From the NCBI RefSeq assembly GCF_000172995.2, contig NC_014729.1:1260001-1292000 (forward strand): 32,000 nt of DNA. Direction: 5' to 3'. This document shows positions 1 through 28,383 of the stretch, in pieces (within the stretch, counting starts at the first letter, position 1; every line of letters begins with the position of its first letter). The position numbers and the translations under genes are program-made. The stretch comes from Halogeometricum borinquense DSM 11551 (GTDB taxonomy: Archaea; Halobacteriota; Halobacteria; Halobacteriales; Haloferacaceae). Under the pieces are notes generated by a model. The model saw only the letters and a list, made by a program, of their open reading frames with translations. It ran no database searches and had not been told where the DNA came from.

Positions 1-530
1 TCGTGAGTGTTGTACTGCTTGAAGTGCCAGTCTAATTCTTCTTTGACACCGGTTGCGAGTGCGTATCCGTTGGTCGGTCGTCGATCACGCTCATCGGTGC
101 CTCCCGTCTCACTGTCGATTCCAAGGACCTCAGGAAGACGCCAAGCAATGATGTTCGCGTCCAATCCGACGACAACAGGGTCCTGGCCGGATTCGAGATC
201 GGCGTACCCATAGCGTTGAGTGAATTCCTCGACGGAGTCGTGATTGTTGAGTGGGACGTGGCCACTGGCGACCATCGTCCGGGTGTACGTCTCGGCGTCT
301 GGAAGGTCGTTGTAGGCAGCTTCACCGTGTTTTGCAGGAATCGTTTCACGGTTGTCTTGGTACGTCATCGTGCCCTGTGTGAACTGAACTGTCGCTTGCC
401 CATCGTCTTCCAGGTTTATCTGGACGAGTTCGCCGATGTCCTCGCAGGGGTGTTTGACGGAGATTGATTCGACACCCTGGTCGTAGAGGGCGTTGAGGAG
501 GACCATCAGCCGTTGGCGTTCAATCTGCAT
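1..530 (-). CDS. PIN-like nuclease domain protein with a ~110-aa N-terminal domain (partial, C-terminus lies beyond the left window edge)
   Basis: Absent from the ORF track because it has no stop inside the window. The reverse complement of 3..530 is open: MQIERQRLMVLLNALYDQGVESISVKHPCEDIGELVQINLEDDGQATVQFTQGTMTYQDNRETIPAKHGEAAYNDLPDAETYTRTMVASGHVPLNNHDSVEEFTQRYGYADLESGQDPVVVGLDANIIAWRLPEVLGIDSETGGTDERDRRPTNGYALATGVKEELDWHFKQYNTH. The ATG at 530-528 shares one base with the TAA of the upstream gene (TAATG). VVVGLDANII resembles the first acidic PIN motif and GVKEEL a second. The assignment is at motif level only. Confidence 0.45.
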   Translation of the reverse strand, partial: MQIERQRLMVLLNALYDQGVESISVKHPCEDIGELVQINLEDDGQATVQFTQGTMTYQDNRETIPAKHGEAAYNDLPDAETYTRTMVASGHVPLNNHDSVEEFTQRYGYADLESGQDPVVVGLDANIIAWRLPEVLGIDSETGGTDERDRRPTNGYALATGVKEELDWHFKQYNTH

Positions 531-1000
531 TACAGCACCTCCTTGAAATCGATTAGGTCAGTGGCAGTGCGCGGGATTTCGGCGTAAAACTGCCCGTAGT
601 AGCCCCCTGCTTTCCGGTGGAAATAGAAGACGTGGTCAGCGTCGAATTTGAATCCTGCCTGGAACGCGATGGCAGACATGAATTTCCGACCAGGAGTAAC
701 ATCAACAGCAATCGTGTCCCCGGTCTCCCGAGCGGCTTCGATAGTAGATCGGTAGAACTCGATGATGTCGGGGAAATCAGTCTCGTCGTCTAAGTCGTGA
801 ACAGAGACATCAGCGTCGCCACCATAGGCATCAACGATTACTTCGAACCGGTCGGTGGCTTTAGCGACGTACTCAGCGACACCGGGATTCGACAGCACCC
901 AGATCTCATCCGGGACGTACCCTTGGTCACAAGCCGCGGTCACCGGATTCAGAATACCGGGCATAGTAGGAGTACCGTTGGTCACCCAGATCCGAGCCAT
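530..1000 (-). CDS. small stand-alone CARF-like (Cas_NE0113/Csx14-type Rossmann-like) domain protein
   Basis: 156-aa ORF. The pattern IWVTNGTPTMPGILNPV (strand plus G-x-[ST]-P-like loop), EIWVLSN, an acidic helix, then DVTPGRKFMSAIAFQAG and HVFYFH resembles the CARF/NE0113 layout (..TGLSPQV.., ..GGRKTM.., ..HVLV). Its stop overlaps the start of the next gene. Confidence 0.45.
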   Translation of the reverse strand: MARIWVTNGTPTMPGILNPVTAACDQGYVPDEIWVLSNPGVAEYVAKATDRFEVIVDAYGGDADVSVHDLDDETDFPDIIEFYRSTIEAARETGDTIAVDVTPGRKFMSAIAFQAGFKFDADHVFYFHRKAGGYYGQFYAEIPRTATDLIDFKEVL

Positions 1001-1116
1001 TAGTTCACAAGAATTACTCCACTATCAATAGTGTTCGCGTGACTGAATCTCGACCGCCACATACGGATTTCAGAAGATTCGCCCGCAGGCTCCTTTGAGT
1101 CCCTCATGGTTCGTTC

Positions 1117-2304
1117 ATGACGAAGAACGCTGACGAGCAAATCGAAACGCTTCGTGAGAAGATCCGAAACGGCAAACGTGAGCTGGATAAAGCCAATCAG
1201 GAGGCTCTCTTGGAGTTCAGTAACGAACTCTTCCTCATACCCAGTCAAGTCGGGGACCAGCGGCATCTCAAACTCCTGCGACACAATGTGAGAATGGCCG
1301 AGCACGGTGGTAGTCCGGTAGAAGCGCTTGAGAGTGAGGATGCTGCAAAGAAGATCGTCCGTTGGATTCATCGTACGTACGACAACGCTGAGACCAATCG
1401 TGATTATCGAGTCGCGTTGAAGCAATTCGGGCGACGAGCCACGGACGAAAACGGAGACGGTCCACCGGGATCAATGGAGTGGATCCCGTCGAACACTCCG
1501 AGTACGTACGACCCGGCTCCGGAACCCAGCAATATGCTTCAGTGGAAAGAGGACGTCCTTCCACTAATCCAAGCGACCCGCAACCCTCGTGATGCGGCTC
1601 TCATCGCGGTTGGATGGGACGCTGGTGCGCGCTCCGGTGAGCTACGCGCTCTTACTGTCGGAGACATCACCGACTACGAACACGGCTACCAAATCACCGT
1701 TCAGGGGAAGATGGGGCAGCGAACAGTTCCACTCATTCCAAGCGTCCCGTTTCTCCAACGATGGCTTGCCGCCCATCCGAGCACCGACGCTGAGGCACCG
1801 CTCTGGAGTAAACTGACCGAACCGGAGGCTCCCAGTTATAACGCGCTTCGGACAGCTGTGAAAGACGCTGCCGACCGAGCTGGAGTGAACAAACCAGTGA
1901 CGTTCACGAACCTCCGCAAATCCAGCGCGTCTCATTTAGCCTCACGCGGACTGAATCAGGCACACATCGAAGATCACCACGGGTGGACTCGCGGAAGCGA
2001 CGTCGCCTCCCGATACGTCTCAGTGTTCGCAGACGATACCGGCCGGGAAGTCGCTCGTGTCCACGGCTTAGAGATCGACGAGGACGAAGAACCCGACGCT
2101 ACTGCGCCGGTCGAATGTCCTCGATGTCACCAACAGACACCCCGAGAGATGGACCGCTGCATCCACTGCCGACAGGCGATAGACAAGGAAACAGCAATCC
2201 AGCGAGAACAGACCTGCGAATGGTGTGGCTCATCGATATCGGACTACTCCGACCATATCCCGAACTGCACTCGTATCAATGTCGATGAGGGGAAGATGCA
2301 GTGA
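1117..2304 (+). CDS. tyrosine recombinase / phage-type integrase with C-terminal zinc-ribbon motifs
   Basis: 395 aa. Has RNPRDAALIAVGWDAGARSGELRALTVGDI (box I Arg) and LRKSSASHLASRG...HHGWTRGSDVASRYV (K, H-x-x-R, catalytic Tyr region). The C-terminus carries CPRCHQ..CIHC and CEWCG..IPNC Cys pairs. It is divergent from the CARF-like gene. Confidence 0.9.
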   Translation: MTKNADEQIETLREKIRNGKRELDKANQEALLEFSNELFLIPSQVGDQRHLKLLRHNVRMAEHGGSPVEALESEDAAKKIVRWIHRTYDNAETNRDYRVALKQFGRRATDENGDGPPGSMEWIPSNTPSTYDPAPEPSNMLQWKEDVLPLIQATRNPRDAALIAVGWDAGARSGELRALTVGDITDYEHGYQITVQGKMGQRTVPLIPSVPFLQRWLAAHPSTDAEAPLWSKLTEPEAPSYNALRTAVKDAADRAGVNKPVTFTNLRKSSASHLASRGLNQAHIEDHHGWTRGSDVASRYVSVFADDTGREVARVHGLEIDEDEEPDATAPVECPRCHQQTPREMDRCIHCRQAIDKETAIQREQTCEWCGSSISDYSDHIPNCTRINVDEGKMQ

Positions 2305-2424: not shown

Positions 2425-3501
2425 ATGGTTGAGTACAAGAACCAACATTATGTGCCCCGCTTCTACCTGAGGAATTTCTCTGATGATGGTCAGAAGATCT
2501 GGCTGTACAATATGCAGGCGAACAGAGAATTTACAGAGCCGATATCGAGGGTTTGTGCCCGCGACTATTTTTATAGTGACGAGACAGACGTTGAGAAGGA
2601 AATCGGATCGATTGAAAGTGCACTGTCAAAGGGGCTGGGAGAACTGCTCGCAATTCAGTCAGTGTCCAAATTCCAGACAGAGAAGGAATTGAAACCCGAT
2701 TGGCTCCGAGTGCTTCAATTTCTGACGTTTCAGGAGGCACGTACTGCTCTCTCGAAAGAGGAGATCGAACAGGATGGTGAGGTAATGTTTGAGACGTTTG
2801 TCAGAGCGGGTATTGAAGCTGGAGAGCTAGATCCGGAACTTCTGGAAGAGGTTAGAGAGGGGAACGTATGGTTAGAGCATGAACAGAGTCCGCAACTGCT
2901 CCCGATGCTCTACCAGCTACATTGCGCACCACTTCTAGCAGATCTTTGGGGGACACTGCTTGTGAATAAAACTGGCACCGAGCTGGTGACAAGTGACCAC
3001 CCTGTTGTTCGCCATAATCCCTATTTCCTCGGGGAAGGCCATCCACAGGAAATCGGATTACAGAGCAGAGGACTCCAGATTTACTGTCCCCTCACCAGCC
3101 ACCATTATCTCCTACTTCATGATCCGGAATGTTATGAAATCGAATGTAGTTCGGAAGGGGTGCGGGAGATTCATGATACAGCGGTGATTAATGAGTTGAA
3201 TAAGCTACAGATTGTCAACTGTGACAATAATGTCTTCTATGGCACAGAAGGACGACAAGAGGAGATGGATTGTCTGTGGGAGCAGCTGGGAGAGCTCGCA
3301 GACACAAACCGAGACGACCGAGGAACGGTTCGGACGGAGGGAGGTATCGGTGTGTACACTAAGATATCGGCTCCCCGGTTTTGTCCTGAATTACCATTTG
3401 TCGAAAAAGAATCAAATATCGAATACCAGCGAGAAAGAGTCGAGGGTGCTCTTGAGGAACAAGAAGAATTCTGGGAGGAGCAATTTGGAGACTTTGTCTA
3501 A
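2425..3501 (+). CDS. DUF4238 domain protein
   Basis: 358 aa. The N-terminal QHYVPRFYLRNFS motif is characteristic of DUF4238. Codon usage is visibly AT-richer and the protein less acidic than its neighbours, suggesting horizontal acquisition. Confidence 0.75.
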   Translation: MVEYKNQHYVPRFYLRNFSDDGQKIWLYNMQANREFTEPISRVCARDYFYSDETDVEKEIGSIESALSKGLGELLAIQSVSKFQTEKELKPDWLRVLQFLTFQEARTALSKEEIEQDGEVMFETFVRAGIEAGELDPELLEEVREGNVWLEHEQSPQLLPMLYQLHCAPLLADLWGTLLVNKTGTELVTSDHPVVRHNPYFLGEGHPQEIGLQSRGLQIYCPLTSHHYLLLHDPECYEIECSSEGVREIHDTAVINELNKLQIVNCDNNVFYGTEGRQEEMDCLWEQLGELADTNRDDRGTVRTEGGIGVYTKISAPRFCPELPFVEKESNIEYQRERVEGALEEQEEFWEEQFGDFV

Positions 3502-3715
3502 TTGCTAACAACTGATCGACCGGCAGTCTATAATAGATCTAGCGAATACGAGCAAAAACTGAGGTAAACGGATTCAGATTCCGCACCAATGTGGAGTACC
3601 GTTCGTTACCCAAATTCGGTCCATTGTCTGAAGAGGATCACGCCGCCATCGAGGTACAGAGGCTCTCACACGTGAATGTGTGGGCCGAATATATTTTGGA
3701 ATTGGTGAAATTTAG

Positions 3716-4060
3716 TTGGGTATGGATTCGAGCATAGGAATCGAGTGGACGGTGGAGTGGGCAACGCCTCTCCCGAATGGTGATGGCTGCTACGACAACT
3801 TGGTGTTGAGTCAGGAACAGGCTTATGAGTACGGTGATGAGCTTGTGATGTCGTTACGAGTAGACGACGAGGTCTTGCGGGGAGAGGGACTGGACCCGGA
3901 AGAGCCGTTTGTGTGGAAAATTGAAGGCGGAGAGTTAGTGATGAAGCAGATCTCTCGGCAGGTGTTTGAACTGATCGCGGAAGATGACCGACACGATTCC
4001 CATTACGCCCGTCAAGTCTTGGAGAATCGAGCGAGACGGAGGCTCCGCGGTTCACTGTAA
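3716..4060 (+). CDS. hypothetical acidic protein
   Basis: 114-aa ORF with acidic, haloarchaeal-like composition. The track start is TTG, and an ATG two codons downstream (3722) is an alternative start. No recognisable motif. Confidence 0.4.
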   Translation: MGMDSSIGIEWTVEWATPLPNGDGCYDNLVLSQEQAYEYGDELVMSLRVDDEVLRGEGLDPEEPFVWKIEGGELVMKQISRQVFELIAEDDRHDSHYARQVLENRARRRLRGSL

Positions 4061-10421: not shown

Positions 10422-12428
10422 CTACGAGAGCCACTCCTCAGGCTTGGTATCGTAGTCCACGTCGGTCGCTCGGATGCGCTCCGTTATCTCCTCGTCTAAC
10501 TCGTACGTCTCGAACTCCTCGCCGTCGTACCGGATGCGCTTGCCTTGCTCGACCGGCGTCGGTTCGCGGTCACGGCGACGGGCAACCTCGACATCGTGTT
10601 CGTCGTACTCTTTGACGATGGTGGCGAGATTCACCGGGCGACCCCAGAGGTCGTACAGGCGTTCGAGAACGCCTCGCGCCTGCGCGATATCGAGCATGAT
10701 GCCGTTGTACTGGTGGCCGAGGAGCAACTCGCCGCGGTTATCGTAGTTGCCGTCGAAGACGACAATCGTGGGTTTCCCGAAGTTCGTAAACTGCAAGAGC
10801 AGTTTCTTTTTCACGTCCTCGTAGTCCACGGAGGCAACGCGGAACTCGCCCGTCGCTTGGGTGAACTCGTACGTGAAGTAGTGGTTGTTCTCGACGAACT
10901 CCTGCGTGAGGAACGCATCAAGGAACGTCACGTCGTTGTGGCTCTCTCGAATCTCCTGCATCCGGTCCCACCCGGACGCTCGGTCCACGTCAGCGATGGC
11001 TTCCTCGACGGTTTCGTACGCCTCGTTGTCGAACATGTACCGGGAGAGGCGTTCGAGTTCCGACCGACGGATGTGTCTGAGGAAGCCGCGGTTCTGCGGT
11101 TTCACAAGCGAGAAATGCCGTTCAGCCAGCCCCTCGTAGGTGAGTACCTTCCACGGATAGGCGTCTACGTCCACCTCGCCGTCATCCGATAACGCTCGGT
11201 CGAGCATCTCCCAATCGACACGTGGGTCGTCTCCCGGCAACGCCGCAAGTTCATCCAGCGTGTCGGACCGAACCCGGTCTATCGCCGGATGCGGTTCGAG
11301 GAGTTGCTGCACCTCGTCGAAGTCGATCACGTCGTGGAAGTTGCGCCAAGTCACACCGCGGACGCGGAGGAGTTTGTCCGCGACTTCGCGGCGGTTCGTC
11401 GTGTTCTCGATATACTCCCACAGTTCCTTGCCGAGTTTGTACGGGTTCAGTCCGGGCGACCCGAGGACGCGCGACTGATGGTCGGCGTAGGTGAGGAACT
11501 CATCGGTGCCAGCGAACCGCTCTTCGCCCATCATGAGCGATTCCCAGTAGGCGGCCCACCCCTCGTTCATCACCTTCGTCATCTTCTGGGGGGCGAAGTA
11601 GTACGACTCCGTTCGGAGGATGTCGAGTACGTCCTTCTGCCAGGACTCCATCTCGACGGCTTTGCCCTCCTCCTCGTCGTAGTACATGCCGTGTTCGCGG
11701 ACGAACGCCAACACGTCGCGGCGGGGGTCGTCCAGTTTCGCCGCCTCGGCTTCGGCCTCCGCGAGTTCGTCGAGCCACTCCTCGTCGAACACCTGCTTGC
11801 GAACGTCTTGGGAGATGTCCATCTCGTCCAGACGCTTGCGGAGATCTTCGGGTTGGACGCGTTCGCGTCCGGTCGCCGCATCGGTGATCGTGCGGTGTTG
11901 GTCGATATTGTCCTCTAAGCAGAGGACGGCGTCGATGAACCGCTCGACATCCTCGCGGTCGATGTCCGGGTCATCCATGTACTTCTGGATGGTTTCCCCG
12001 TGCTGTTCGAGCATCGCCGCGGCGTCTAAGTCCGAGTCGCCGGCGAACATGCCGAACCACTCGTTGTTACTGAAGAAGTCCGCGTGCGCCTCGACGTGAG
12101 TGATGACCGCTTTCTGGTCGGCCAGCGAGTTCGACTCCTGCAAGAACGCGTGTGAAGGATTGTCGTTGTTGACAATCTCGAACGCCTTACCCATGCCGAA
12201 CTGGTCTTTTTTCTGCTGGCGGTCGTACGTCATTCCCCATCGCCAGTGCGGGTAGCGTCGCTGGAACCCACCGTAAGCGATGAGTTGGTTCATCTCGTCG
12301 TAGTTGACCACCCAGTAGTTCACCGGGTACGGTTTGAGGCCGAGTTTACGGGCGAGGTTGCCCGCCTCACGGACCGATTCCTCCAACTCCCCGGCGACTT
12401 TCTGTGCGGTGTGTCTGAATCGTCTCAT
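10422..12428 (-). CDS. spoVR: SpoVR/YcgB family protein
   Basis: 668 aa from the ATG at 12428 ([17 protein letters not shown]...). That ATG overlaps the stop of the upstream gene (ATGA). It is the last gene of the prkA-yeaH-spoVR-type module. The 92-aa Arg-rich extension in the track was rejected. Confidence 0.85.
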
Positions 12429-13750
12429 TCTCCATCCTCCGTGCTGAGTATGTCGTAGATGGCGTCTACCACGTCTTCCGGCGAGGAGACGTACGCGACG
12501 ACGACGTTCCCTTGTTCTTCGAGGGAGCGCTCGACTTCCTCTGCGTGTGTTGCGTTGATTGCGGTGCCGCCCGGTTGGGTCTCCACGTAGGCGTGGAGGT
12601 TCGCCGGAATCTCTTTCATCAGGGGGACGACGTTCTCTGTCGTGTCGTTCGATGAGTTCTCCGAGTCGCCCGCGGCGAACACGTAGCGGTTCCACTCGGA
12701 CCACGGGTACTCCTCTTCAAGAATCTCCTTGGCCAGTTCGTACGCCGAGGAGATACGGGTCCCGCCACCTGAACGAATGCCGAAGAACTCGTCGCGTTCG
12801 ACCTGCCACGCCTCGGCGTCGTGCGCGATGTAGACGAACTCGGCGTTGTCGTATTTACCAGTCAAATACCAATCCAGTGGCGTAAACGTCCGCTCGACCA
12901 GCTCGCGCTTCTTCTCGCGCATCGACCCCGACACGTCGCGGATGTTCACCACGACGACGTTCTTCTCTTTCTCCTCGATGATCTCGGGATGGCGGTAGCG
13001 TTCGTCTTCACGCCGGAACGGGATGTCACGCAGGCCTTCGCGGCGAATGCGCTGGAGCGTCGTCGTCCGCTCGACGTTTTCCTCCATCTCCTCGTATGAG
13101 GACCACGTATCTCGTTCGTCGTCGGGAATTCGCTTCCACTCGTCTTCGATCCACGCCAACGAGACGAGGATGTGCTGGTCGCGGCACCACTGGTAGACCG
13201 ACTGCGGATCTTCGCCCTCGACTTTCATCGCCTCGCGGACGAAGTCGTCGTCGAAGTCCATCGCCAGTTTTCGCTTGAGTCCCTCTTTGAACAGGCGTTC
13301 GAAGTCGAGAGTGCTGTGCGGCCCGGTCCGCGTTACGTCGGTGAAGTCACCCTCGATCTCCTCGATTACTTCCTTGCCTTTCGGTTCGAGGTCCAGACCG
13401 AGTTCCTCGTCGAGTTCCTGTGCGAACTCTTCGGGGTCCATCTCGTAGTACTCGTGGTCTGCGCCCTCCTCACCGGGTTCGCCGTCTTCATCGCCATCGC
13501 CGTCGCCATCTCCGGGTTGCGGTTGGCCGACGGGTTGCCCCACGTCCGGCGTTCCGTCCTTTCCCTGTCCGACACCGCCCTGATCGAGTTGGTCGTACTG
13601 GAACTCCGGCAAGTCCACGACCTTGATTGGGATCTTGATGCTGTCGGGACCGGAGCCGCCGAGATTACCGTAGCTGATGAACTCTTTGAGGTCCTCGCGC
13701 CGCTCTTCGCCGATTTCGCGGAACCGCTCGACGTCCTCTCTCAGTCCCAT
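12425..13750 (-). CDS. YeaH/DUF444 family protein with vWA-like domain
   Basis: 441 aa from the ATG at 13750 ([18 protein letters not shown]...). Has an acidic [17 protein letters not shown] linker and [13 protein letters not shown] (MIDAS-like D-x-S-G-S). It overlaps the upstream stop by 10 nt. Confidence 0.85.
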
Positions 13751-16020
13751 TCGTGACGCACCTCGTTCATCACCGCGCGACTCGTGAGTTCGGCCGATGC
13801 GGGGGTGTATCCGTTCTTCACCATGTGGTCGATCGTTCGTTCTTTCACTCGCTCTGTCTCCGTGTTCGCCGGTGGGTCGTCCCACTGGTCTGGGTCGAAG
13901 TCCTCGAATAAGCGGCTGACATCGTCCCACTCGTGCGTCTCTAACACCGTTCTGATGACGGGTATCTCCGAGAGTTCCACGTCTTCGACGGTGAACCCCT
14001 CGTCACGGTTCTCCCACGCGTAGCGGTTCAGCGCGGTGATGACCTTCTCGCGGCGGAACTCTTTGACGTCTGCAGAGGGTTCGTTACCCGTGTAATCGCT
14101 CTCTGCGAACCGACCGAGGTGTTCCGTCTCGAACAGTTTCATCAGGAGTGCGTCTGGTTCGACCGGACCGTGTTCAGTCTCTATCTGTCCGTCTGATTCC
14201 CACGCGTACACGTGTTCGACGTACTCCGCGACCGTCTCCTGTTCGACGTGTTTGTCTGCAAGGACGGCCGCGAGGACATCCGCTTCCTGCTGGTCGAAGA
14301 TGTATTCTTTCACGACAGTAACCCGGCTCTCGTACTCGGAGCGTTCGGCGCGCGAGAACACCGGGGCGTCGTGAAGCCCCTCAGCCATCGAATCCAGCAA
14401 GTCGTCGGGCATGACGACGGTACCGACCTCCAGCGAGGGGTGGTGTCTATCGCGGTCTTCATGCAGCAGGTCCGCGATGATATCCCGAGTGAACGTGACC
14501 GGAACTCCGTGTGTTCCCTCGTTGTCGCTGTCGAAGCCGAACTCGTCTATCTCCTCGCGCGTGTCGCCGACTTGGAGGTAGCCACGGTCGAACAGCAGCG
14601 CCTTGTCCACCAGACTGTAGCCGTCGGGCACGTCGTCGCCGTCGAGCCGGGAGACGACGGAGTACATCGCCGCCGCTTCGATAGCGTGCGGGGCGAGTTC
14701 GCGTCGCTTGACCGCACCCGGGCCGCTCCGAACGTCCACGAACAGGCTCTCGTTAATTCTCTCTTCGAGTTCCTCTCTGTCCTCGACATCCCACACGTCG
14801 GTCTCGTTCGTCAGTTCGCGCCGGATGAGTTCGGTCTCCAACGAGACGTTCGTCAGGTAGCGGAACTCGTGTTTGTCGAGACGGCGTTTCAACGCCTTCA
14901 GCGGGTCGCGCCCGTTGCGGTCGGAGTACTTGTCGAGTTCGGCGTCCAAGTCGGGATTCGAGATGATGAGCAGTTGCGTGTCGATGTCCATCCCGATCCC
15001 TTTGTCCAGTTTGACGTGTCCCTCATCGGGAACGTTCAGGAGTCGCTGCAACAGGTCGGCGTGTTGCGTCGCATCCTCGACAATCGTCAAGAGACCGTTC
15101 CCCTGCGAGAGAACGCCGTCGTAACTGAACGCCTGCGGATTTTTCCGCCCGCGAGAATCGAGTTCGCGGAGCATACTCGGCATCCACGACCCGACCAGTC
15201 GTTCTTTCGGTGACCCGTCGTCCTCGGAGTGGAGAACGCCGATCCCCTGTCCCACGTCCACGACGTAGTTTTTCACCCGTAGATGCTTGGGGTCGGACAC
15301 GGCGGTAAACAGGTTGCGCTTACCCGTACGACGGTATTTCTCTTCGAGGTAGTCGTACGCCTCTCGGCAGAACGGGTCCAGTTCTTCGTCAAGTGAGACG
15401 GGAATGTGACCGTCCTCGTTCTCGTTTAACTCCGCAAGGAGGCTCCGTCTGACCTCCGCTGGGAACACAGAAAGCGGATGCGACTGAACGGGACTTTCGT
15501 ACCAGTCGGACTCGTGTTCGGCACCGCTCACTTCGCCGCCGTACGACAGACCGCGGCTGTCGTCAACGTTGGTGACGTTCCACTCGACGGTGTACCGTCG
15601 CCCCTCAAGCGTCTTCGAGTATTCGCGGAGGCCGTTGATAAGACACCGTTTCAGTTCGGACTTCCCCGTCGCCGTGGGTCCATCGAACCAGATTATCTTC
15701 TCACCTTTCCCGCGTTTGGCGGCGATGGTCCGTAGGTCATCGACGAACCGATTCAAGACCTCAGTGTTACCGAGGACGGCGTGTTCGCCGTCGTTGGCCG
15801 GGTCGTCGAAGAAGCGATACCGCTCTTTCTCCTCGCCTTCCTCGATGACCGTTCGCGTACCCGCCGCCTCGATCGCTTGCAGGAGGTACTTCGAGGCGTG
15901 GGAGGCAATCGAGGGCGACTCGAATGCGGCATCGACGTACTCTGCGAGGCTCATCGGCTCCTCGTAGGTGCCTCGGAGTTGTTCGTCAGCCTCGCGGATG
16001 TAATCTCTCGTTGGCGTCAT
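13741..16020 (-). CDS. PrkA-family AAA ATPase/protein kinase-like protein, second paralog
   Basis: 759 aa from the ATG at 16020 ([15 protein letters not shown]...). Walker A is [17 protein letters not shown]. The ATG lies 1 nt after the stop of prkA (TAG at 16022-16024). Confidence 0.8.
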
Positions 16021-16021
16021 A

Positions 16022-18094
16022 CTAGCCTTCCAGTTCGCTCTTTGCCACCTCCGCACCGGCGAACTCTAACACCTCTCTGGCACCTTCGCGCGAGTAGCCC
16101 TGTTCGACGAGAGCGTCTACCCACGCGTTTCGCTCGTCATCGTCCAGTTCGTTGGCGCTGACGAGTGCCGAGAAGTTGATATTGTGTTTTTTGTCCTCCC
16201 AGAGTTTGCGCTCCAGTGCGCGGCGGAGTCTGTCGTTGTCCTGCGGGTCGAACGCCTGTCCTTCGCGGGCGCGCCGTGAGACCCAGTTGGAAACCTCCTG
16301 TCGGAAGTCGTCCTTGCGGTCCTCGGGGATGTCGAGTTTCTCCTCGACCGACCGCAGGAACTTCTCGTCGGGATCCTGTTCGCGGCCCGTGAGTTCGTCC
16401 TGCACGGTGGCGTCGTCGATGTACGCCATCACGTGGTCCATGTACTTTTCACCCTGTCGCTGAATCTCGTCTAAGTCGTACGCGAGGGCGTGGCGAACGT
16501 CCTCGATGGCGCGTTCTTTGTACTCCTCACGGACCATTTCGAGATAGCGGTGGTAGCGTTCGAGGTTGTCCTCGGGGATGGAGCCGTGGTTCTCCAAGTT
16601 CTCCTCGAAGTGCGTGAACACCGACAGCGGCGAAAGGTAGTTGCGGTCGCGGTGCGTCGAATCCATGATGGCCTCGGCGATTTCGTCGCCGATGAAGCGC
16701 GCGGAGACGCCCTCCATCCCTTCGCCGATGTTCATCTTCGATTCGGCCTCTTCGCGGAGTTTCTTCACGTCGGTGTCGTCGCCCTCGTCAATCTCGCCGT
16801 TGTACGCCTTCGCCTTCTGCGTCAGCGTGATGTTCCCGCCGTCGGGTTCGACGATGCGGGTGAGGACACCGAACAACCCGGCCATCTCCAAGGTGTGCGG
16901 TTCGATGTGCATGTCCGGCACGTCGGCGTTCCGGAGCATCTTCCGGTAGATTTCGGACTCCTCAGAGTACTCAAGGACGTACGGGAAGTCGATCCGTTTC
17001 GTCCGGTCGTTGAACGCCTCCATCTTCTCGTCGCCCTTTTTGTCCCGGTACTCGGGCATGTTCGTCCGGCCGACGATGACCTGGTCGATGTCGATTCGCG
17101 GGTTGTTCTTCGGTTTGATCGTCTGTTCCTGACTCGCGTGTAGGAAGTCGTACAGGAACTCCCGCTGGAGTTTCAGCAACTCCTCGCCGGAGAACAGCCC
17201 CCGGTTGGCGTTACAGAACGCACCGGAATAATCGAACGCACGCGGGTCTGACTCCCCGTAGACGGCCAGTTTCGAGTAGTTGACGTCGCCCGTCAACTCG
17301 GTCTCGTCTTGGTTCTTCTTGTCTTTCGGCTCGAACGTCTCGATGCACTGGCGCTTGTTTTCGGAGGCGACGAGTCGGACGATCTCGATGTGGTTCGAGA
17401 CGACCTCTTGTAAGTCGTCGTCGTAGTACGCCAGCAGTTGGTCCATGTAGAACTCCGAGGCGGGATCTAACGCCTGGTCGTTCCGGATGGTGTACGGTGC
17501 GTCCAGCGCCTCGTTCAGGCGCTCGATGACCATATCCCGTTGTTCCTGCGGGAGGAGGACAATAGGGTCTTGATGCATCGGCGACGGAACCACGTCGTCT
17601 GCGGGGTCTTGGTCCCGGATCACGTCCGTGAGGTTGGTCCACCGGAACGTGTACATTCGACCCTCATCACGCAGCGTGTAGTCCTCGAAGTAGCGTCGGA
17701 CCATCCAGTCGAAGTGTGACTTCCCTGACCCGACGGGGCCGAGAAGCAGTTTGATGCGCTTTTCGGGACCGAGACCGCGAGCTCCCGACTTCACCTTGTT
17801 GACGAATTCGTGGATTGACTCGTGGACTTCGCGGCCATAGAAGGTGTTTTCCCCGTCGTGGATGGGGTCCTCAGAGGCCATGAGGTACTCGACAATTCCG
17901 GCTTCCTCGTCGTACTCGGTGCCGTAGTAGTCGAACATGTCAGCAACGCGCTGATGGGCGTTGCGAGCGATTCTCGGGTCGTTGTAGACCTCGTCTAGGT
18001 ACCACTCGAAACTCTTTGCCTCACGGAGGTCCGCGGGTACGGAATCCTTGTAGTGCTTGCTCAGATCTTCGAGGGTGTCGATGTCACCATTCAT
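16022..18094 (-). CDS. prkA: PrkA family serine protein kinase (YeaG-like)
   Basis: 690 aa from the ATG at 18094 (MNGDIDTLEDLSKHYKD...). Walker A is LLLGPVGSGKSHF, and length and layout are typical of PrkA/YeaG. The upstream TTG extension to 18223 was rejected. Confidence 0.9.
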   Translation of the reverse strand: MNGDIDTLEDLSKHYKDSVPADLREAKSFEWYLDEVYNDPRIARNAHQRVADMFDYYGTEYDEEAGIVEYLMASEDPIHDGENTFYGREVHESIHEFVNKVKSGARGLGPEKRIKLLLGPVGSGKSHFDWMVRRYFEDYTLRDEGRMYTFRWTNLTDVIRDQDPADDVVPSPMHQDPIVLLPQEQRDMVIERLNEALDAPYTIRNDQALDPASEFYMDQLLAYYDDDLQEVVSNHIEIVRLVASENKRQCIETFEPKDKKNQDETELTGDVNYSKLAVYGESDPRAFDYSGAFCNANRGLFSGEELLKLQREFLYDFLHASQEQTIKPKNNPRIDIDQVIVGRTNMPEYRDKKGDEKMEAFNDRTKRIDFPYVLEYSEESEIYRKMLRNADVPDMHIEPHTLEMAGLFGVLTRIVEPDGGNITLTQKAKAYNGEIDEGDDTDVKKLREEAESKMNIGEGMEGVSARFIGDEIAEAIMDSTHRDRNYLSPLSVFTHFEENLENHGSIPEDNLERYHRYLEMVREEYKERAIEDVRHALAYDLDEIQRQGEKYMDHVMAYIDDATVQDELTGREQDPDEKFLRSVEEKLDIPEDRKDDFRQEVSNWVSRRAREGQAFDPQDNDRLRRALERKLWEDKKHNINFSALVSANELDDDERNAWVDALVEQGYSREGAREVLEFAGAEVAKSELEG

Positions 18095-18613
18095 TGTTCG
18101 TTGACGGATGTCGATAGAGCGGCCACATGCCTCCCGAAGTGCCTCGAAATACTGGGAGGCAGAGGCGGTCTTGGTCCGTGTGGACGGTGGGTGGCCGCTC
18201 GTATCGGGCCGCCCGGTGCGCAACAGGTCCAGACGACCGACGGCGGCAGGTCAACGGTGAGCGACGAATCATCAGTGTTCGGCGGACGATGCGCGGAAGG
18301 CGGGTGCTCGGTCCGGTCAACCGAGGCTATTAATGTGTGAGAGACACACGCATATAAGTCTTCCTCGAAATTTGATGTGAGATCGACGTACGGAGGCGAC
18401 ATCAGAAAATCTGCCGTTAAATAGGTAATACAGTGCTTGTTGATAGGTTTTTGCATTGGTATTTGTTGCCAATAAACATATCTCTGTTTTGAATGGTATT
18501 CGATATAATATGACAGTTTCGTACCCAGTACGACGGCCTTACGACGCGTTCGATAGCTTCCGGCAACACAGGAGACCGAAGGAGATTCGACTGTCGCCGC
18601 ACAACCGACTCCT

Positions 18614-21289: not shown

Positions 21290-21373
21290 GCGAGGGTGGC
21301 CGAGTCTGGAAAAGGCGGCGGACTCAAGATCCGCTCTCGTAGGAGTCCGTGGGTTCAAATCCCTCCCCTCGCA
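21290..21373 (+). tRNA. tRNA-Leu (anticodon CAA), class II with long variable arm, CCA not encoded
   Basis: Acceptor GCGAGGG/CCCTCGC is perfect. D-arm GCC-GAGTCTGGAAAA-GGC, anticodon arm GCGGA-CTCAAGA-TCCGC, variable arm TCTCGTAGGAGTC, T-arm GTGGG-TTCAAAT-CCCTC (one U-U mismatch), discriminator A. Confidence 0.9.
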
Positions 21374-21416
21374 CTTGTGCCGACGAACTATGTGAGGAGT
21401 GCCAAGTGCGGACGGT

Positions 21417-25765: not shown

Positions 25766-27475
25766 CTACGGGTACGGATGGTACGGCTTCTGCAACTCCG
25801 CCTCGAATCCCAGTTCTTCGGGGACACTCGTTGCCCGAGCGCCGAAGAACGGGTCTCCTTGAAATAGCGGTTGGGCTTCGGGAATCAGCACGCGGACGGC
25901 CTCGAATCCGAGCGAAGCCACGTCTGTCGTCGTCGTCCGGACGGCGTACGGATCCAATCCAGCGTCCGCGACGCGTTCGACCACAGCGTCTAACTCCGCT
26001 TTACCCGACGGCACGTCGTCGGGACCGACGCTCGCCGCTGGCACTGCCGGTCCAGCGTTCACGAACCGCCGCGCTGCGTCCGGGAAGTCGGCGTACTCCC
26101 CGATTGCTCCCTTCTCGGCGTTGGCTCGTTCCGGTCCCATCGAGCGGAGTTCCATCCAGTTCTGTAACGCCTCAGCGAGTGCCGACCGTGCTGCGTCGGC
26201 CACATCGAGCGATGCACCCGACCCCATCGCAAACTGCGGCCACTCGCCGTCGCGGTGGACAGCAACGGCGATGACGGGCACGTCCACGTCCTGCGTGACC
26301 AACAGCGGTGTCGCGGTGAGATTCTCGGACCGGGCACGCTTCACCAACGCTCGGTACCCCTCGTCTGCGACGTCGAGTTTGAGCGGATCGAACGAGGAGT
26401 ACCACGCGAGTATCGTCGCATCGCGCTCTATCACCTCGTACAGACCCGAAAGCAACGCTTCGGTGCCGGAGTTTCCGAGACCGAGTCCGGTCGTGATTGG
26501 CGGTTTGTGCCGAGTGTCCGGCGGCGGATAGTGGACGAACTCCGCCGGAACGGAGACAGTGTCTCCGGTAGCGAGGTTCTCGCCGTCAACCCACGGAATC
26601 GGTTCCTCGGCGTCGGGTGCACGGTACGAATCAGGTCGAACGAAACGTGCGGGCGACACGGGTCGAGCGCGCGTCCGTTCGGGCGCGACGGTGAACTCAG
26701 AAGCGCGATAGACGCCTGCACAGTAGCGTTCGAGGGCTTCTCCGAGCGCCTTCATGAACGCCGCGTCCCAGTCGGGATCAACTCCGGCGGCGAATTCGGC
26801 GGCGCGAGCGTCGCTGAACCCGCGCGTATCGGCGGTCTGCGCGAGGTAGTACGGGACGGGGAACGACTCGCGTTCGCCCACCTGCGCGACGAGGCCCGTC
26901 CGGTCGTCCAACGCACGTTCGGCGCGGGCGAGCGAGTCGTCGACAGCGGCGTCGCGGTAGTCGCGGCGAACGGTCCGATCACGGTCCACCGGATCAGGAA
27001 CGGGTAACACTGTCCGTTCGGCCGTGACGCCTGTCCCGGAGATTTCAGCGACGGTGCCGACGACTGAGTCGTCACCGGTCAGGAGCGCGACGGCCCGACG
27101 ACCCGCGACGGCCCCCGCGAGACGGACCGCGCTCCGTCCGCCCGACGGTGAGTCGCCGCCATCAGTCGTCGCGGCGACGCGCGTACAGAGGTCCGCGTAG
27201 CGACTCGTCCCGGCAAAGACCGAAACTGCGGCGTCCAACTCGGCGAGCGGGACGCCACCAACACCGCCGATTTCGACGACCACCAGCCGGTCAGCGGCCA
27301 TACCGACGGTCTGCGGCACTGTTGCCCCCGCCGGTGCGACGACGACGGCGAGCGCCGCCTCGGCGGCATCCTCGGGTGTGGTGTCGTTCACGGCGGCGTC
27401 ACAGTCCGCGAGGGCGGCGCGGACGGCCTCGGCGGCTGGACCGCTCCCGACGAGTGCGATGTCGTGCGTTGTCAC
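25766..27475 (-). CDS. YcaO domain protein with N-terminal Rossmann-like (GxGxxA) extension
   Basis: The FMKALGEALERYCAGVY and LGLGNSGTEALLSGLYEVIERDA blocks are typical YcaO motifs. The N-terminus has IALVGSGPAAEAV. The start is uncertain: GTG at 27475 (MTTHDIALVGSG) is preferred over the TTG at 27538. Confidence 0.8.
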   Translation of the reverse strand: MTTHDIALVGSGPAAEAVRAALADCDAAVNDTTPEDAAEAALAVVVAPAGATVPQTVGMAADRLVVVEIGGVGGVPLAELDAAVSVFAGTSRYADLCTRVAATTDGGDSPSGGRSAVRLAGAVAGRRAVALLTGDDSVVGTVAEISGTGVTAERTVLPVPDPVDRDRTVRRDYRDAAVDDSLARAERALDDRTGLVAQVGERESFPVPYYLAQTADTRGFSDARAAEFAAGVDPDWDAAFMKALGEALERYCAGVYRASEFTVAPERTRARPVSPARFVRPDSYRAPDAEEPIPWVDGENLATGDTVSVPAEFVHYPPPDTRHKPPITTGLGLGNSGTEALLSGLYEVIERDATILAWYSSFDPLKLDVADEGYRALVKRARSENLTATPLLVTQDVDVPVIAVAVHRDGEWPQFAMGSGASLDVADAARSALAEALQNWMELRSMGPERANAEKGAIGEYADFPDAARRFVNAGPAVPAASVGPDDVPSGKAELDAVVERVADAGLDPYAVRTTTTDVASLGFEAVRVLIPEAQPLFQGDPFFGARATSVPEELGFEAELQKPYHPYP

Positions 27476-27558
27476 GGCCAAACCGACGGCAGAGTGAGAG
27501 AAAAATCGCGGGGGTCTCGATGCCCGTTGCCGATGCAAGACAGCGGGCCGATCAGAAC

Positions 27559-28383
27559 TCAGGCGAGGAGGCTCTGTGCGACGCCCGCGAGTTGGTCGGG
27601 GTCAGCGTTGACGAGACGGTCGTCGCCGAGTTTGAGGCGGAGGCGCGGACGACCAACGTCGATTGGTACTTTCTCGGTGTCGATGAGCCCCATCTCTTCG
27701 AGTTTCGTTTTGGTGCGGGAGAACGTCGCCTTGCTGGCGATACCGACATCCTCGCCCCACTTTGAGATGTCGTAGAGGAGGACTTCGTTCTTCGCAGCGA
27801 CAAGGAGGCTGATGGTCACTTCATCGAGCCCGTCGCCGTCACCACGTGCGGTCTGAAGCGAGGAGAGTACCGAGTCGAAGTCGTCGCGTGCGTCGGCGCT
27901 GATCTCCTCTTCGAGCGTCGCTCGAACCCGTTCGATGGGTGGCGTGCGGAGTTTATACTGGGGTGCTTCCTCCCACTGCATCGTGTACGTGTCGTAGGCG
28001 GCGGCGACGAACTCGTCGTCAGTCGTCACCAGACCGGCGACCTGATCGCCCGCAGTGACCAGCGAGACGACGGCGTCTTTGGTGATGAGAAGCGCGTTCG
28101 CTGTCCCGTTATCCGTCGTCCGCATCGAGAGCGACTCGGACTCGACGAGGTCGGCCGCGTTGCTCGCAACGATAAAGTCGTCCATAACATCCTTCAGAAC
28201 GGACTCGTCTGCGATCATCCGTATCTCCGGCAACCCGTCCTCCGTCTCCGAAGCGACGGCGACGAGCGTGTCGATTACGTCCGCCGTGGGATCAACCACG
28301 AGTACGTCCTCCGCCCCCGAGTCGAGGACCGAGCGAAGAATGCGTTCGGCATCCTCCGTAAGCATGTTCGAGTCGATAGTCAT
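27559..28383 (-). CDS. haloarchaeal HTH transcription regulator (TbsP-like, name tentative)
   Basis: 274 aa and very acidic. The C-terminal wHTH-like segment is LYDISKWGEDVGIASKATFSRTKTKLEEMGLIDTEKVPIDVGRPRLRL. The ATG sits directly below an AT-rich box. Confidence 0.55.
   Translation of the reverse strand: MTIDSNMLTEDAERILRSVLDSGAEDVLVVDPTADVIDTLVAVASETEDGLPEIRMIADESVLKDVMDDFIVASNAADLVESESLSMRTTDNGTANALLITKDAVVSLVTAGDQVAGLVTTDDEFVAAAYDTYTMQWEEAPQYKLRTPPIERVRATLEEEISADARDDFDSVLSSLQTARGDGDGLDEVTISLLVAAKNEVLLYDISKWGEDVGIASKATFSRTKTKLEEMGLIDTEKVPIDVGRPRLRLKLGDDRLVNADPDQLAGVAQSLLA

Follow-up and report, generated by a model that had tools for sequence, protein, structure and literature searches.

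We have analysed a 32,000 nucleotide (nt) stretch of the Halogeometricum borinquense DSM 11551 genome (NC_014729.1, positions 1,260,001-1,292,000 of the forward strand; hereafter the window), which corresponds to a locus that is also present on contig AOHT01000010.1 (L001). At its left end two overlapping open reading frames (ORFs) on the (-) strand, ORF1 and ORF2, encode a stand-alone CARF-domain protein and a PIN-domain protein, respectively, and our data suggest that the two probably constitute a split, ligand-gated CARF-PIN effector that in haloarchaea is found detached from CRISPR loci.

The overlapping genes ORF1 and ORF2

ORF1 (530..1000, (-) strand) encodes a 156 amino acid (aa) protein that belongs to the CARF_m1 clade and is predicted to sense the ligand. 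It has an ATG start and a TAA stop codon at 532-530, and its translation holds IWVTNGTPTMPGILNPV, DVTPGRKFMSAIAFQAG and HVFYFH exactly. The ORF2 ATG is located at 530-528 and the frame is open as far as window base 3. This part (1..530, (-) strand) corresponds to the first 176 of 345 codons, holds VVVGLDANIIAW and GVKEEL, and covers the N-terminal adaptor domain and the first half of the PIN domain with D124 and E165; the remainder lies to the left of the window. An initial annotation of the window had described a TAATG overlap between the two genes and a second ORF that runs off the window. The sequence confirms the overlap (528..532, (-) strand; one shared base), and leftward extension of the contig completes ORF2, which is intact on the source contig and encodes 345 aa (L001 10471-11508). 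The overlap is predicted to couple the translation of ORF1 and ORF2.

A promoter-like element, GAACACTATTG (1026..1036, (-) strand), is present 26-36 nt 5' of the ORF1 ATG. Thirteen loci of the closest clade share it at this distance, whereas further upstream their sequences diverge. This is consistent with an archaeal B recognition element (BRE)/TATA box that would give a leaderless transcript, and the pair thus appears to have its own promoter.

ORF1 is a CARF-domain protein

The 156 aa protein matches the PADLOC profile PDLC01972 (CARF_m1--CARF) at 6.1e-66 over profile positions 2-145 of 145, i.e. a full-length clade match, as well as the first 149 positions (2-149) of PDLC01973 (CARF_m1--CARF_PIN), and with 25.1 bits it scores above the gathering cut-off of 23 for Pfam PF09623 (Cas_NE0113). 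Its AlphaFold2 model has a predicted local distance difference test (pLDDT) score of 87.9 and shows Rossmann-like alternating strands and helices. When this model was compared with the PDB using Foldseek, all top matches were CARF domains (probability 1.0, template modelling (TM) score ~0.6): SiRe_0806 was the best match, and Cam1, Cad1, TtCsm6, EiCsm6, Sis0455, Sso2081, Csa3 and Can1 were also found. ORF1 is therefore a CARF-domain protein, as its CARF/Cas_NE0113-like sequence pattern had suggested in the initial annotation.

Two loops line the predicted pocket, TNGTPT after strand 1 and DVTPGRKFMSA after strand 4, the latter being of the D-x-T-x-G-[RK] type. GTPT and D[VIF]TPGRK are invariant in the family alignments (31 and 40 sequences), and GT(P/S)T and D[VIF]TPGRK[FY]MSA are invariant in 40/40 haloarchaeal pairs and identical to the motifs of a type III-linked relative (see below). 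Since the pocket motifs are invariant in all 40 pairs we argue that ligand binding has probably been retained in haloarchaea, and by analogy with structural relatives that have cyclic tetra-adenylate (cA4) bound the ligand may be a nucleotide.

The names given to ORF1 relatives in databases disagree, and include 'CRISPR-associated ring nuclease' (used by NCBI and other sources), 'PDDEXK family nuclease' and 'hypothetical'. The first of these corresponds to another interpretation of ORF1, namely a stand-alone ring nuclease that degrades cyclic oligoadenylates and would serve the host as an off-switch or a mobile element as an anti-defence gene (the latter was an alternative raised in the initial annotation), with ORF2 being functionally separate. 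Apart from the name, among PDB sequences the CARF profile matches only SSO1393 and Sis0455 (E = 0.004-0.013), both of which are ring nucleases, ring nucleases are among the Foldseek matches, and the Thr-rich loop and K106 are conserved, which would be in keeping with cA4-cleaving CARF domains. However, ORF1 reaches 15.4 bits against NCBIfam Crn1 (NF040581; cut-off 125) and 21.7 bits against Csx14 (cut-off 90), and judged by these profile scores neither the 'ring nuclease' nor the 'PDDEXK' name appears to be supported. Moreover, ORF2 with its overlapping start follows ORF1 in every intact locus and the two proteins co-vary, the pair is colinear with single-chain CARF-PIN proteins, and a class for which type III CRISPR is reported to be absent offers no obvious substrate. 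Viral collections did not provide any homologues either: no ORF2 relative was detected in IMG/VR and no ORF1 relative among the INPHARED phages, while a search of BFVD gave weak, generic Rossmann-like matches only, and a viral anti-defence origin was set aside on these grounds. That ORF1 acts as a ring nuclease on its own is therefore very unlikely, and the anti-defence alternative is poorly supported.

ORF2 is a PIN-domain protein

Full-length ORF2 matches PDLC01973 (CARF_m1--CARF_PIN) at 3.6e-24 over profile positions 171-455 of 465, and its PIN half matches PDLC01068 ('CARF_PIN') at 4.6e-13. Using a 90%-identical homologue, an AlphaFold2 model with a pLDDT of 93.1 was obtained, in which three parts can be discerned: an N-terminal domain (residues 1-115), a PIN alpha/beta core (~119-270) and a C-terminal domain (275-345). 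The initial annotation had proposed PIN-like motifs after a domain of ~110 aa, and the model places the PIN core after an N-terminal domain of ~115 aa. Four acidic residues, D124, E165, D225 and D249, are invariant in 34 ORF2 sequences and occupy the positions of the PIN catalytic tetrad. In the model, D124 follows the strand 119-123, E165 is within the helix 160-166, D225 begins the helix 225-238 after the strand 216-219, and D249 follows the strand 242-247.

Foldseek searches of the PDB with this model returned SiRe_0806 first (E 4e-6); further matches were the 3ix7 PIN domain (E 2.4e-3, probability 1.0), the SMG6 PIN domain (0.96), Nmd4 (0.97) and the Marf1 NYN domain. Hence, structure comparison, which had been suggested as a check of the initial annotation, gives CARF for ORF1 and PIN for ORF2, and on the basis of the model ORF2 is a PIN-fold protein with a predicted nuclease tetrad. 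As for ORF1, database names for ORF2 relatives disagree ('rRNA-processing protein FCF1', 'PIN domain-containing' and 'hypothetical').

The pair is conserved among haloarchaea

Homologues of ORF1 and ORF2 number 346 and 287, respectively. A scan with one genome per species gave 38 loci, all from Halobacteria, to which chromosomal loci and 13 megaplasmids that carry the pair were then added; lineages, 26 in number, were defined at 90% identity. The co-occurrence survey proposed together with the initial annotation thus shows that the pair and its overlap are conserved in ~40 haloarchaeal loci. Among 39 loci, the genes overlap by one base (TAATG or TGATG) in 33 and by four bases (ATGA) in five, and in the remaining one they are separated by a one-base gap. 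Given the numbers of homologues, and an overlap that is kept in 38/39 loci, the ORF1/ORF2 pair is not a chance arrangement. The ORF1 and ORF2 proteins have pairwise identities that are correlated (r = 0.92), and none of the 26 lineages deviates in the pocket or catalytic motifs.

A CARF gene is located directly 5' of every complete ORF2 homologue except that in L005; the other loci in which it is missing are truncated or at contig ends. The ORF2 of L005, for which a CARF gene was not detected, is extended at its N-terminus by ~90 unrelated aa. Matches to ORF2 begin at residue 9 in L005, 110 in L027 and 81 in L028; since these copies are truncated or lack a CARF gene, the module appears to be decaying in some genomes.

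Single-chain and type III-linked relatives

An exhaustive HMMER search grouped the ORF2 relatives into 217 clusters. Most of these proteins are 330-375 aa long and a few are longer (452-573 aa), and at the N-terminus of the longer ones there is a CARF domain in which the D[IVM]TPGRK[FY]MSA loop is kept. One of the fused proteins, P0388, aligns to ORF1 with its residues 2-157 and to ORF2 with residues 178-469, and matches the PADLOC CARF_m1--CARF_PIN profile over its full length at 1.9e-197; its gene neighbours are Csx3, Cmr-type RAMP genes, Cmr5 and Cas2. In haloarchaea the module is not single-chain: a stop codon separates ORF1 and ORF2 in the window and in all 39 haloarchaeal loci that have both.

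The split form is also found in association with type III CRISPR systems. In the metagenomic locus L046, a 163 aa CARF_m1 protein and a 349 aa ORF2 homologue are encoded right after Cas10 and four RAMP genes and are followed by Csx1. This CARF protein keeps DITPGRKYMSAIA, HVYYLH and YYG, and comparison with the haloarchaeal alignment using hhalign gave a probability of 99.5 and 32% identity. The loci of the relatives in L043 and L046 are thus in or beside type III CRISPR cassettes. For another four distant ORF2 homologues a small gene (~160-170 aa where complete) overlaps their start.

Both models, that of ORF1 and that of ORF2, share the same best match in the PDB, the Sulfolobus protein SiRe_0806 (9jxw; 9jxx with cA4). 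The link to SiRe_0806 comes from Foldseek, since HMMER searches of the PDB sequences, for which the ORF2 profile and the fused protein P0388 served as queries, gave nothing meaningful. Based on the structural matches SiRe_0806 would belong to the CARF-PIN family.

In a distant branch (L044/L045, L048 and L053) the module is fused or split and its CARF pocket loop has decayed to SSGSR or TGQPA. Here the modules precede a gene for a ~335 aa SMC/AAA_23-type ATPase within Dnd (DNA phosphorothioation) islands, and Dnd genes are present beside the distant relatives L044, L048 and L053.

A probable split, ligand-gated CARF-PIN effector

We consider it likely that the two genes encode one split, ligand-gated CARF-PIN effector of the CARF_m1 family, which acts in abortive-infection-type defence and has become detached from a CRISPR locus. 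A ligand-gated toxin or abortive-infection module was among the possibilities raised in the initial annotation, and it is the interpretation that our data support best. In such an effector the CARF domain of ORF1 would dimerise and form a pocket for a ligand of the cyclic oligoadenylate type, most likely cA4. ORF2 would consist of an adaptor, followed by a metal-dependent PIN nuclease and the C-terminal domain, with the N-terminal adaptor domain being the counterpart of the covalent linker in the single-chain proteins. Translational coupling would provide matched amounts of the two chains, and we infer that these form a complex equivalent to the fused homodimer. Ligand bound to the CARF domain would switch on the PIN nuclease, which would then cut cellular and invader RNA and lead to growth arrest. 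The CARF domain may also degrade its own ligand and thereby reset the switch; cleavage of the ligand is hence compatible with a ligand-gated effector, as a self-limiting step. In haloarchaea the module would have left the type III locus, and its two genes would now move as an independent unit within defence islands and with megaplasmids.

Several observations weigh against this interpretation. First, the Pfam PIN_4 match to ORF2 is sub-threshold (E = 0.038), and the assignment of the PIN domain therefore depends on the fold and the family profile and not on Pfam. Second, the arguments for an ORF1/ORF2 heteromer are colinearity with the fused proteins and the predicted coupling, both derived from sequence. 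Third, neither Cas10 nor any other cyclase was found within 10 kb in any of the haloarchaeal loci examined; Halobacteriales are reported to have type I-B and I-D CRISPR systems only (PMC6546412), and a further review describes the order as being without type III systems and notes that no cA4 could be detected in Haloferax volcanii (PMC8646023). Finally, the Sulfolobales protein ST0035, the one CARF-PIN protein reported to have been tested, bound cA4 weakly and showed no induced RNase activity (PMC6546367), which tempers our confidence in the ligand-gated model, and in the literature examined no CARF-PIN effector has been shown to be activated by a ligand.

Alternatively, the pair might be a ligand-independent toxin-antitoxin or addiction module that stabilises islands and megaplasmids, with a VapC-like PIN toxin and, as the protein antitoxin, a CARF protein whose role in signalling has been lost. 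The small upstream gene that overlaps the start of the PIN gene, the presence of the pair on megaplasmids and islands, and the lack of a cyclase nearby are as would be expected for such a module. Furthermore, in the distant branch represented by P0249 and L048 the CARF loop is degenerate while the downstream PIN region still matches the CARF-PIN profiles, which suggests that ligand binding can be lost. In the 40 haloarchaeal pairs, on the other hand, the pocket motifs are invariant and the same as in the type III-linked relative. Moreover, ORF1 has no VapB-type DNA-binding domain, and ORF2, with 345 aa and three domains, differs from VapC, which is ~130 aa. We therefore find a toxin-antitoxin module quite improbable.

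The putative ligand and its source

For the ligand-gated effector we favour cA4 as the ligand, because the pocket motifs are common to type III-linked relatives and the best structural match has been determined with cA4 bound. In the haloarchaeal loci no cyclase was found within 10 kb, and type III systems are reported to be absent from the class. When six-frame ORFs from all loci were searched with phmmer for relatives of the Cas10, RAMP and Cmr proteins of L046 and L043, nothing haloarchaeal was hit, which is a weak test. No plasmid in PLSDB matched the L046 Cas10 in a tblastn search, for which this query is too divergent to be informative. Within the loci studied, the haloarchaeal pairs are not beside a Cas10 cassette, and only one short CRISPR-like repeat was found (L017). 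The ligand of other orphan CARF proteins of haloarchaea, which are Csa3-like, is an acknowledged open question (PMC8699464; PMC11434293).

With respect to the side observations that concern CRISPR and other CARF proteins, the array in L017 (14986-15257) is short, with 4.4 copies, a period of 63 and a conserved unit of ~25 nt, CCCACACCGTGTGAAGAATGGAT; it is found at the end of the contig, 4 kb downstream of the pair, and its repeat does not resemble those typical of haloarchaea. In L014 (8816-9463), a gene for a Csa3-like regulator with CARF3 and winged helix-turn-helix domains (PADLOC CARF3--CARF, 3.8e-83) lies directly upstream of the pair, and the same position is occupied in L023. A second orphan CARF protein thus shares the locus with the pair in L014 and L023.

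The integrase/DUF4238 segment

Divergently from ORF1, and as noted in the initial annotation, the window has a gene for a tyrosine recombinase/integrase (1117..2304, (+) strand; Pfam Phage_integrase 3.7e-14) with a C-terminal zinc ribbon, for which there are weak DZR matches in Pfam and a XerA-like match under the cut-off in NCBIfam. It is co-directional with a gene for a DUF4238 protein (2425..3501, (+) strand; Pfam DUF4238 2.8e-52), where the GC content is lowest (0.49-0.51). Beyond these two genes, a decayed duplicate of the first ~33 codons of ORF1 (3552..3650, (-) strand; MDRIWVTNGTP...) carries a frameshift and a stop codon. This copy is an imperfect direct repeat of the intact 927-1026 (repeat families D1/D3, spacing 2624-2625 nt, 99-nt local alignment). 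Between the two copies of the CARF 5' end there are just the integrase and DUF4238 genes, and these copies are the only direct repeats that were found there.

A small conserved protein of 114 aa (cluster c8), taken from the ORF list, is encoded at 3716..4060 ((+) strand). In L004 and L006-L008 the c8 gene is the immediate divergent neighbour of the CARF gene, as seen when L008, L007 and L004 were compared with L001 using blastn, and in the window the integrase segment of 2.6 kb parts the two. There is no tRNA gene adjacent to the island in the window that could represent an integration site; the only tRNA gene, tRNA-Leu(CAA) (21290-21374, (+) strand), is distant from it. The simplest reading would be that a small integrase element has been inserted at the 5' end of the CARF gene, and the copies at 927-1026 and 3552-3650 look like attL and attR of an element that targets this site. 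The initial annotation placed the pair on an integrase island. The integrase is indeed present and the GC content is low; however, an integrase adjoins the pair only in L001 (H. borinquense) and L002 (H. limi), and since the segment looks inserted at the CARF 5' end the integrase may target the pair rather than carry it.

Genomic neighbourhood of the pair

In agreement with the initial annotation, the 32-kb window has no recognisable cas gene or nucleotide cyclase, and neither have the 10 kb on its left side. These 10 kb contain a DDE transposase-like gene, a nucleotidyltransferase gene with DUF8154, an HNH restriction-like gene and a HEAT-repeat gene. The GC content is 0.49-0.57 across L001 7-17 kb compared to 0.58-0.62 in the flanking housekeeping DNA. 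Starting 2 nt past the ORF2 stop, ORF3 (L001 11511-12245) encodes 244 aa with hydrophobic stretches that by eye resemble transmembrane segments; as a third component of the module it was rejected, being kept only in H. limi (L002). To the right, the window has housekeeping genes that are unconnected to the pair and located on the (-) strand: an operon with SpoVR, DUF444 and two PrkA genes (10422-18223), a gene for a YcaO protein (25766-27538) and one for a TbsP-type regulator (27559-28383).

Across the haloarchaeal loci the neighbours of the pair vary and are mostly defence genes, i.e. AbiEi/AbiEii, HNH restriction and restriction-modification genes, prokaryotic Argonaute (pAgo) together with a PLD protein, Dpd- and BREX-like ATPases and AddAB-like helicase-nuclease pairs. 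Counted per lineage and within 10 kb, ADP-ribosylglycohydrolase (ARH) genes are present in 8/26, HEAT-repeat genes in 7/26, AddA-like genes in at least 7/26 and integrase genes in 3/26, while 12/26 lineages have none of AddA, HEAT and ARH. Given these 12 lineages, the minimal conserved unit is the pair itself. HEAT, ARH, vWA, AAA_14 and AddAB-like genes were considered as obligatory partners and rejected; they are enriched, yet each is missing from most lineages.

One arrangement recurs in L018, L020-L026 and L030-L032, where genes for a Zn-ribbon/vWA protein, a HEAT-repeat protein and ARH form a co-directional block with the CARF and PIN genes that extends ~6 kb upstream. The N-terminus of the HEAT protein in this block is HAD-like by eye (DxDxT-like motif), and a divergently oriented AAA_14/DUF4143 ATPase gene accompanies the block. 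Such linkage is seen too in L002-L005, L009, L016/L049, L034, L039 and L040, and in other lineages ARH and/or HEAT genes are near the pair in differing orders and orientations. AddAB-like sets, i.e. a gene for a UvrD helicase-PD-(D/E)XK nuclease fusion together with one for a second large PD-(D/E)XK protein, often adjoin the pair (L011, L015, L018, L022, L025, L028, L030, L035-L037, L039-L042 and L050). They are convergent, divergent or co-directional to it, and in L042 the set stops 52 nt short of the CARF start.

The ARH and HEAT genes raise the question of whether the module senses a signal that does not originate from Cas10, i.e. a nucleotide made by an unidentified enzyme of haloarchaea or viruses, or an ADP-ribose-related metabolite handled by the linked ARH and HAD-like/HEAT proteins. 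ARH and HEAT genes are found within 10 kb in the numbers of lineages given above and in varied orders, including the vWA-HEAT-ARH-CARF-PIN operon; in addition, type III systems are reported to be absent from the class, and the ligands of orphan haloarchaeal CARF proteins are acknowledged to be open. Against this, the 12 lineages that are without these neighbours make none of them obligatory, ARH and HAD domains are hydrolases and not synthases of a signal, and the CARF pocket motifs equal those of type III-linked relatives. Moreover, the co-location could simply reflect clustering in defence islands. We regard the sensing of such a signal as quite unlikely.

Implications

What is understood of CARF-effector switches comes almost entirely from type III CRISPR systems, to which they are accessories. 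Here a PIN effector is found as two chains, predicted to be translationally coupled, that has spread via haloarchaeal defence islands and megaplasmids, with its pocket intact, in a class that is reported to be without type III systems. What makes the module interesting is where its ligand comes from and how well the module lends itself to experiments. It offers a concrete handle on what activates orphan CARF proteins where Cas10 is absent, a question that has been raised for Csa3 (PMC8699464; PMC11434293). The module is also genetically tractable, since Haloferax species are among its natural carriers and a PIN nuclease, if toxic, would provide a selectable readout. Moreover, the split form could be convenient for the biochemistry of ligand activation, because sensor and nuclease can be purified separately. 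The domain assignments also correct the database names of ORF1 and ORF2 homologues.

A broader proposal, which we put forward as unlikely, is that haloarchaea keep a widespread and highly conserved orphan CARF-PIN switch driven by a signal that does not come from Cas10. Such a signal might be made by an oligonucleotide synthase of archaea or viruses that has so far escaped recognition, or it might be a nucleotide or a metabolite derived from ADP-ribose that is connected with the recurrently linked ARH, HAD-like/HEAT, vWA and AddAB-like genes. If true, this would represent a CRISPR-independent CARF signalling pathway for defence in archaea.

Comparison with known systems

The regulatory principle proposed for the pair is that of Csm6/Csx1 (CARF-HEPN), in which a CARF dimer that senses cyclic oligoadenylates switches on a non-specific RNase, and TtCsm6 and EiCsm6 are among the structural matches of ORF1; the effector there is a HEPN domain whereas here it is a PIN domain on a separate chain. 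The Crn1 ring nucleases (Sso2081, Sis0455 and Sso1393) are small CARF proteins and the nearest PDB relatives of ORF1 by sequence. Crn1, however, acts alone, while ORF1 is paired with a PIN protein and is far under the Crn1 cut-off.

Proteins with CARF and PIN domains have been listed among type III accessory genes or 'toxins' since 2014-2019 (PMC4012209; PMC6546367), and Msed_1167 (cluster 104) and ST0035 are type III accessory proteins of Sulfolobales (Shah et al. 2019, PMC6546367). The Sulfolobales CARF+PIN proteins (Msed_1167, ST0035, those covered by PDLC01068 and, as proposed above, SiRe_0806) have the same domain content and order as the pair, and PDLC01068 ('CARF_PIN') matches ORF1 at 1.8e-16 and ORF2 at the 4.6e-13 given above. 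They differ in being single chains of ~370-410 aa with a shorter linker that occur with type III cas cassettes. The split pair of L046 has the same layout of two genes, the same CARF motifs and the same profile matches. Its genes are separated by a 14-nt gap instead of an overlap, its host is no halophile, and its proteins are ~25-32% identical to the haloarchaeal ones.

The initial annotation did not recognise the two-gene layout as a described system. PADLOC, however, holds both CARF-only and fused CARF_m1 profiles, which makes the layout a variant of a catalogued family, and the split pair occurs in a type III locus (L046). ORF1 and ORF2 together cover positions 2-149 and 171-455 of the 465-position profile of the fused CARF_m1 CARF-PIN proteins (PDLC01973; PDLC01972 for the CARF-only form), and the family member P0388 has the same loop motifs and PIN tetrad. 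The PADLOC CARF_m1 profile names presumably follow the CARF classification of Makarova et al. 2020. Unlike the fused proteins, sensor and effector are here separate, apparently coupled polypeptides, and the haloarchaeal loci are not beside CRISPR-Cas genes. The pair is thus the split form of the catalogued CARF_m1 CARF-PIN family, detached from CRISPR in haloarchaea, rather than a new kind of system.

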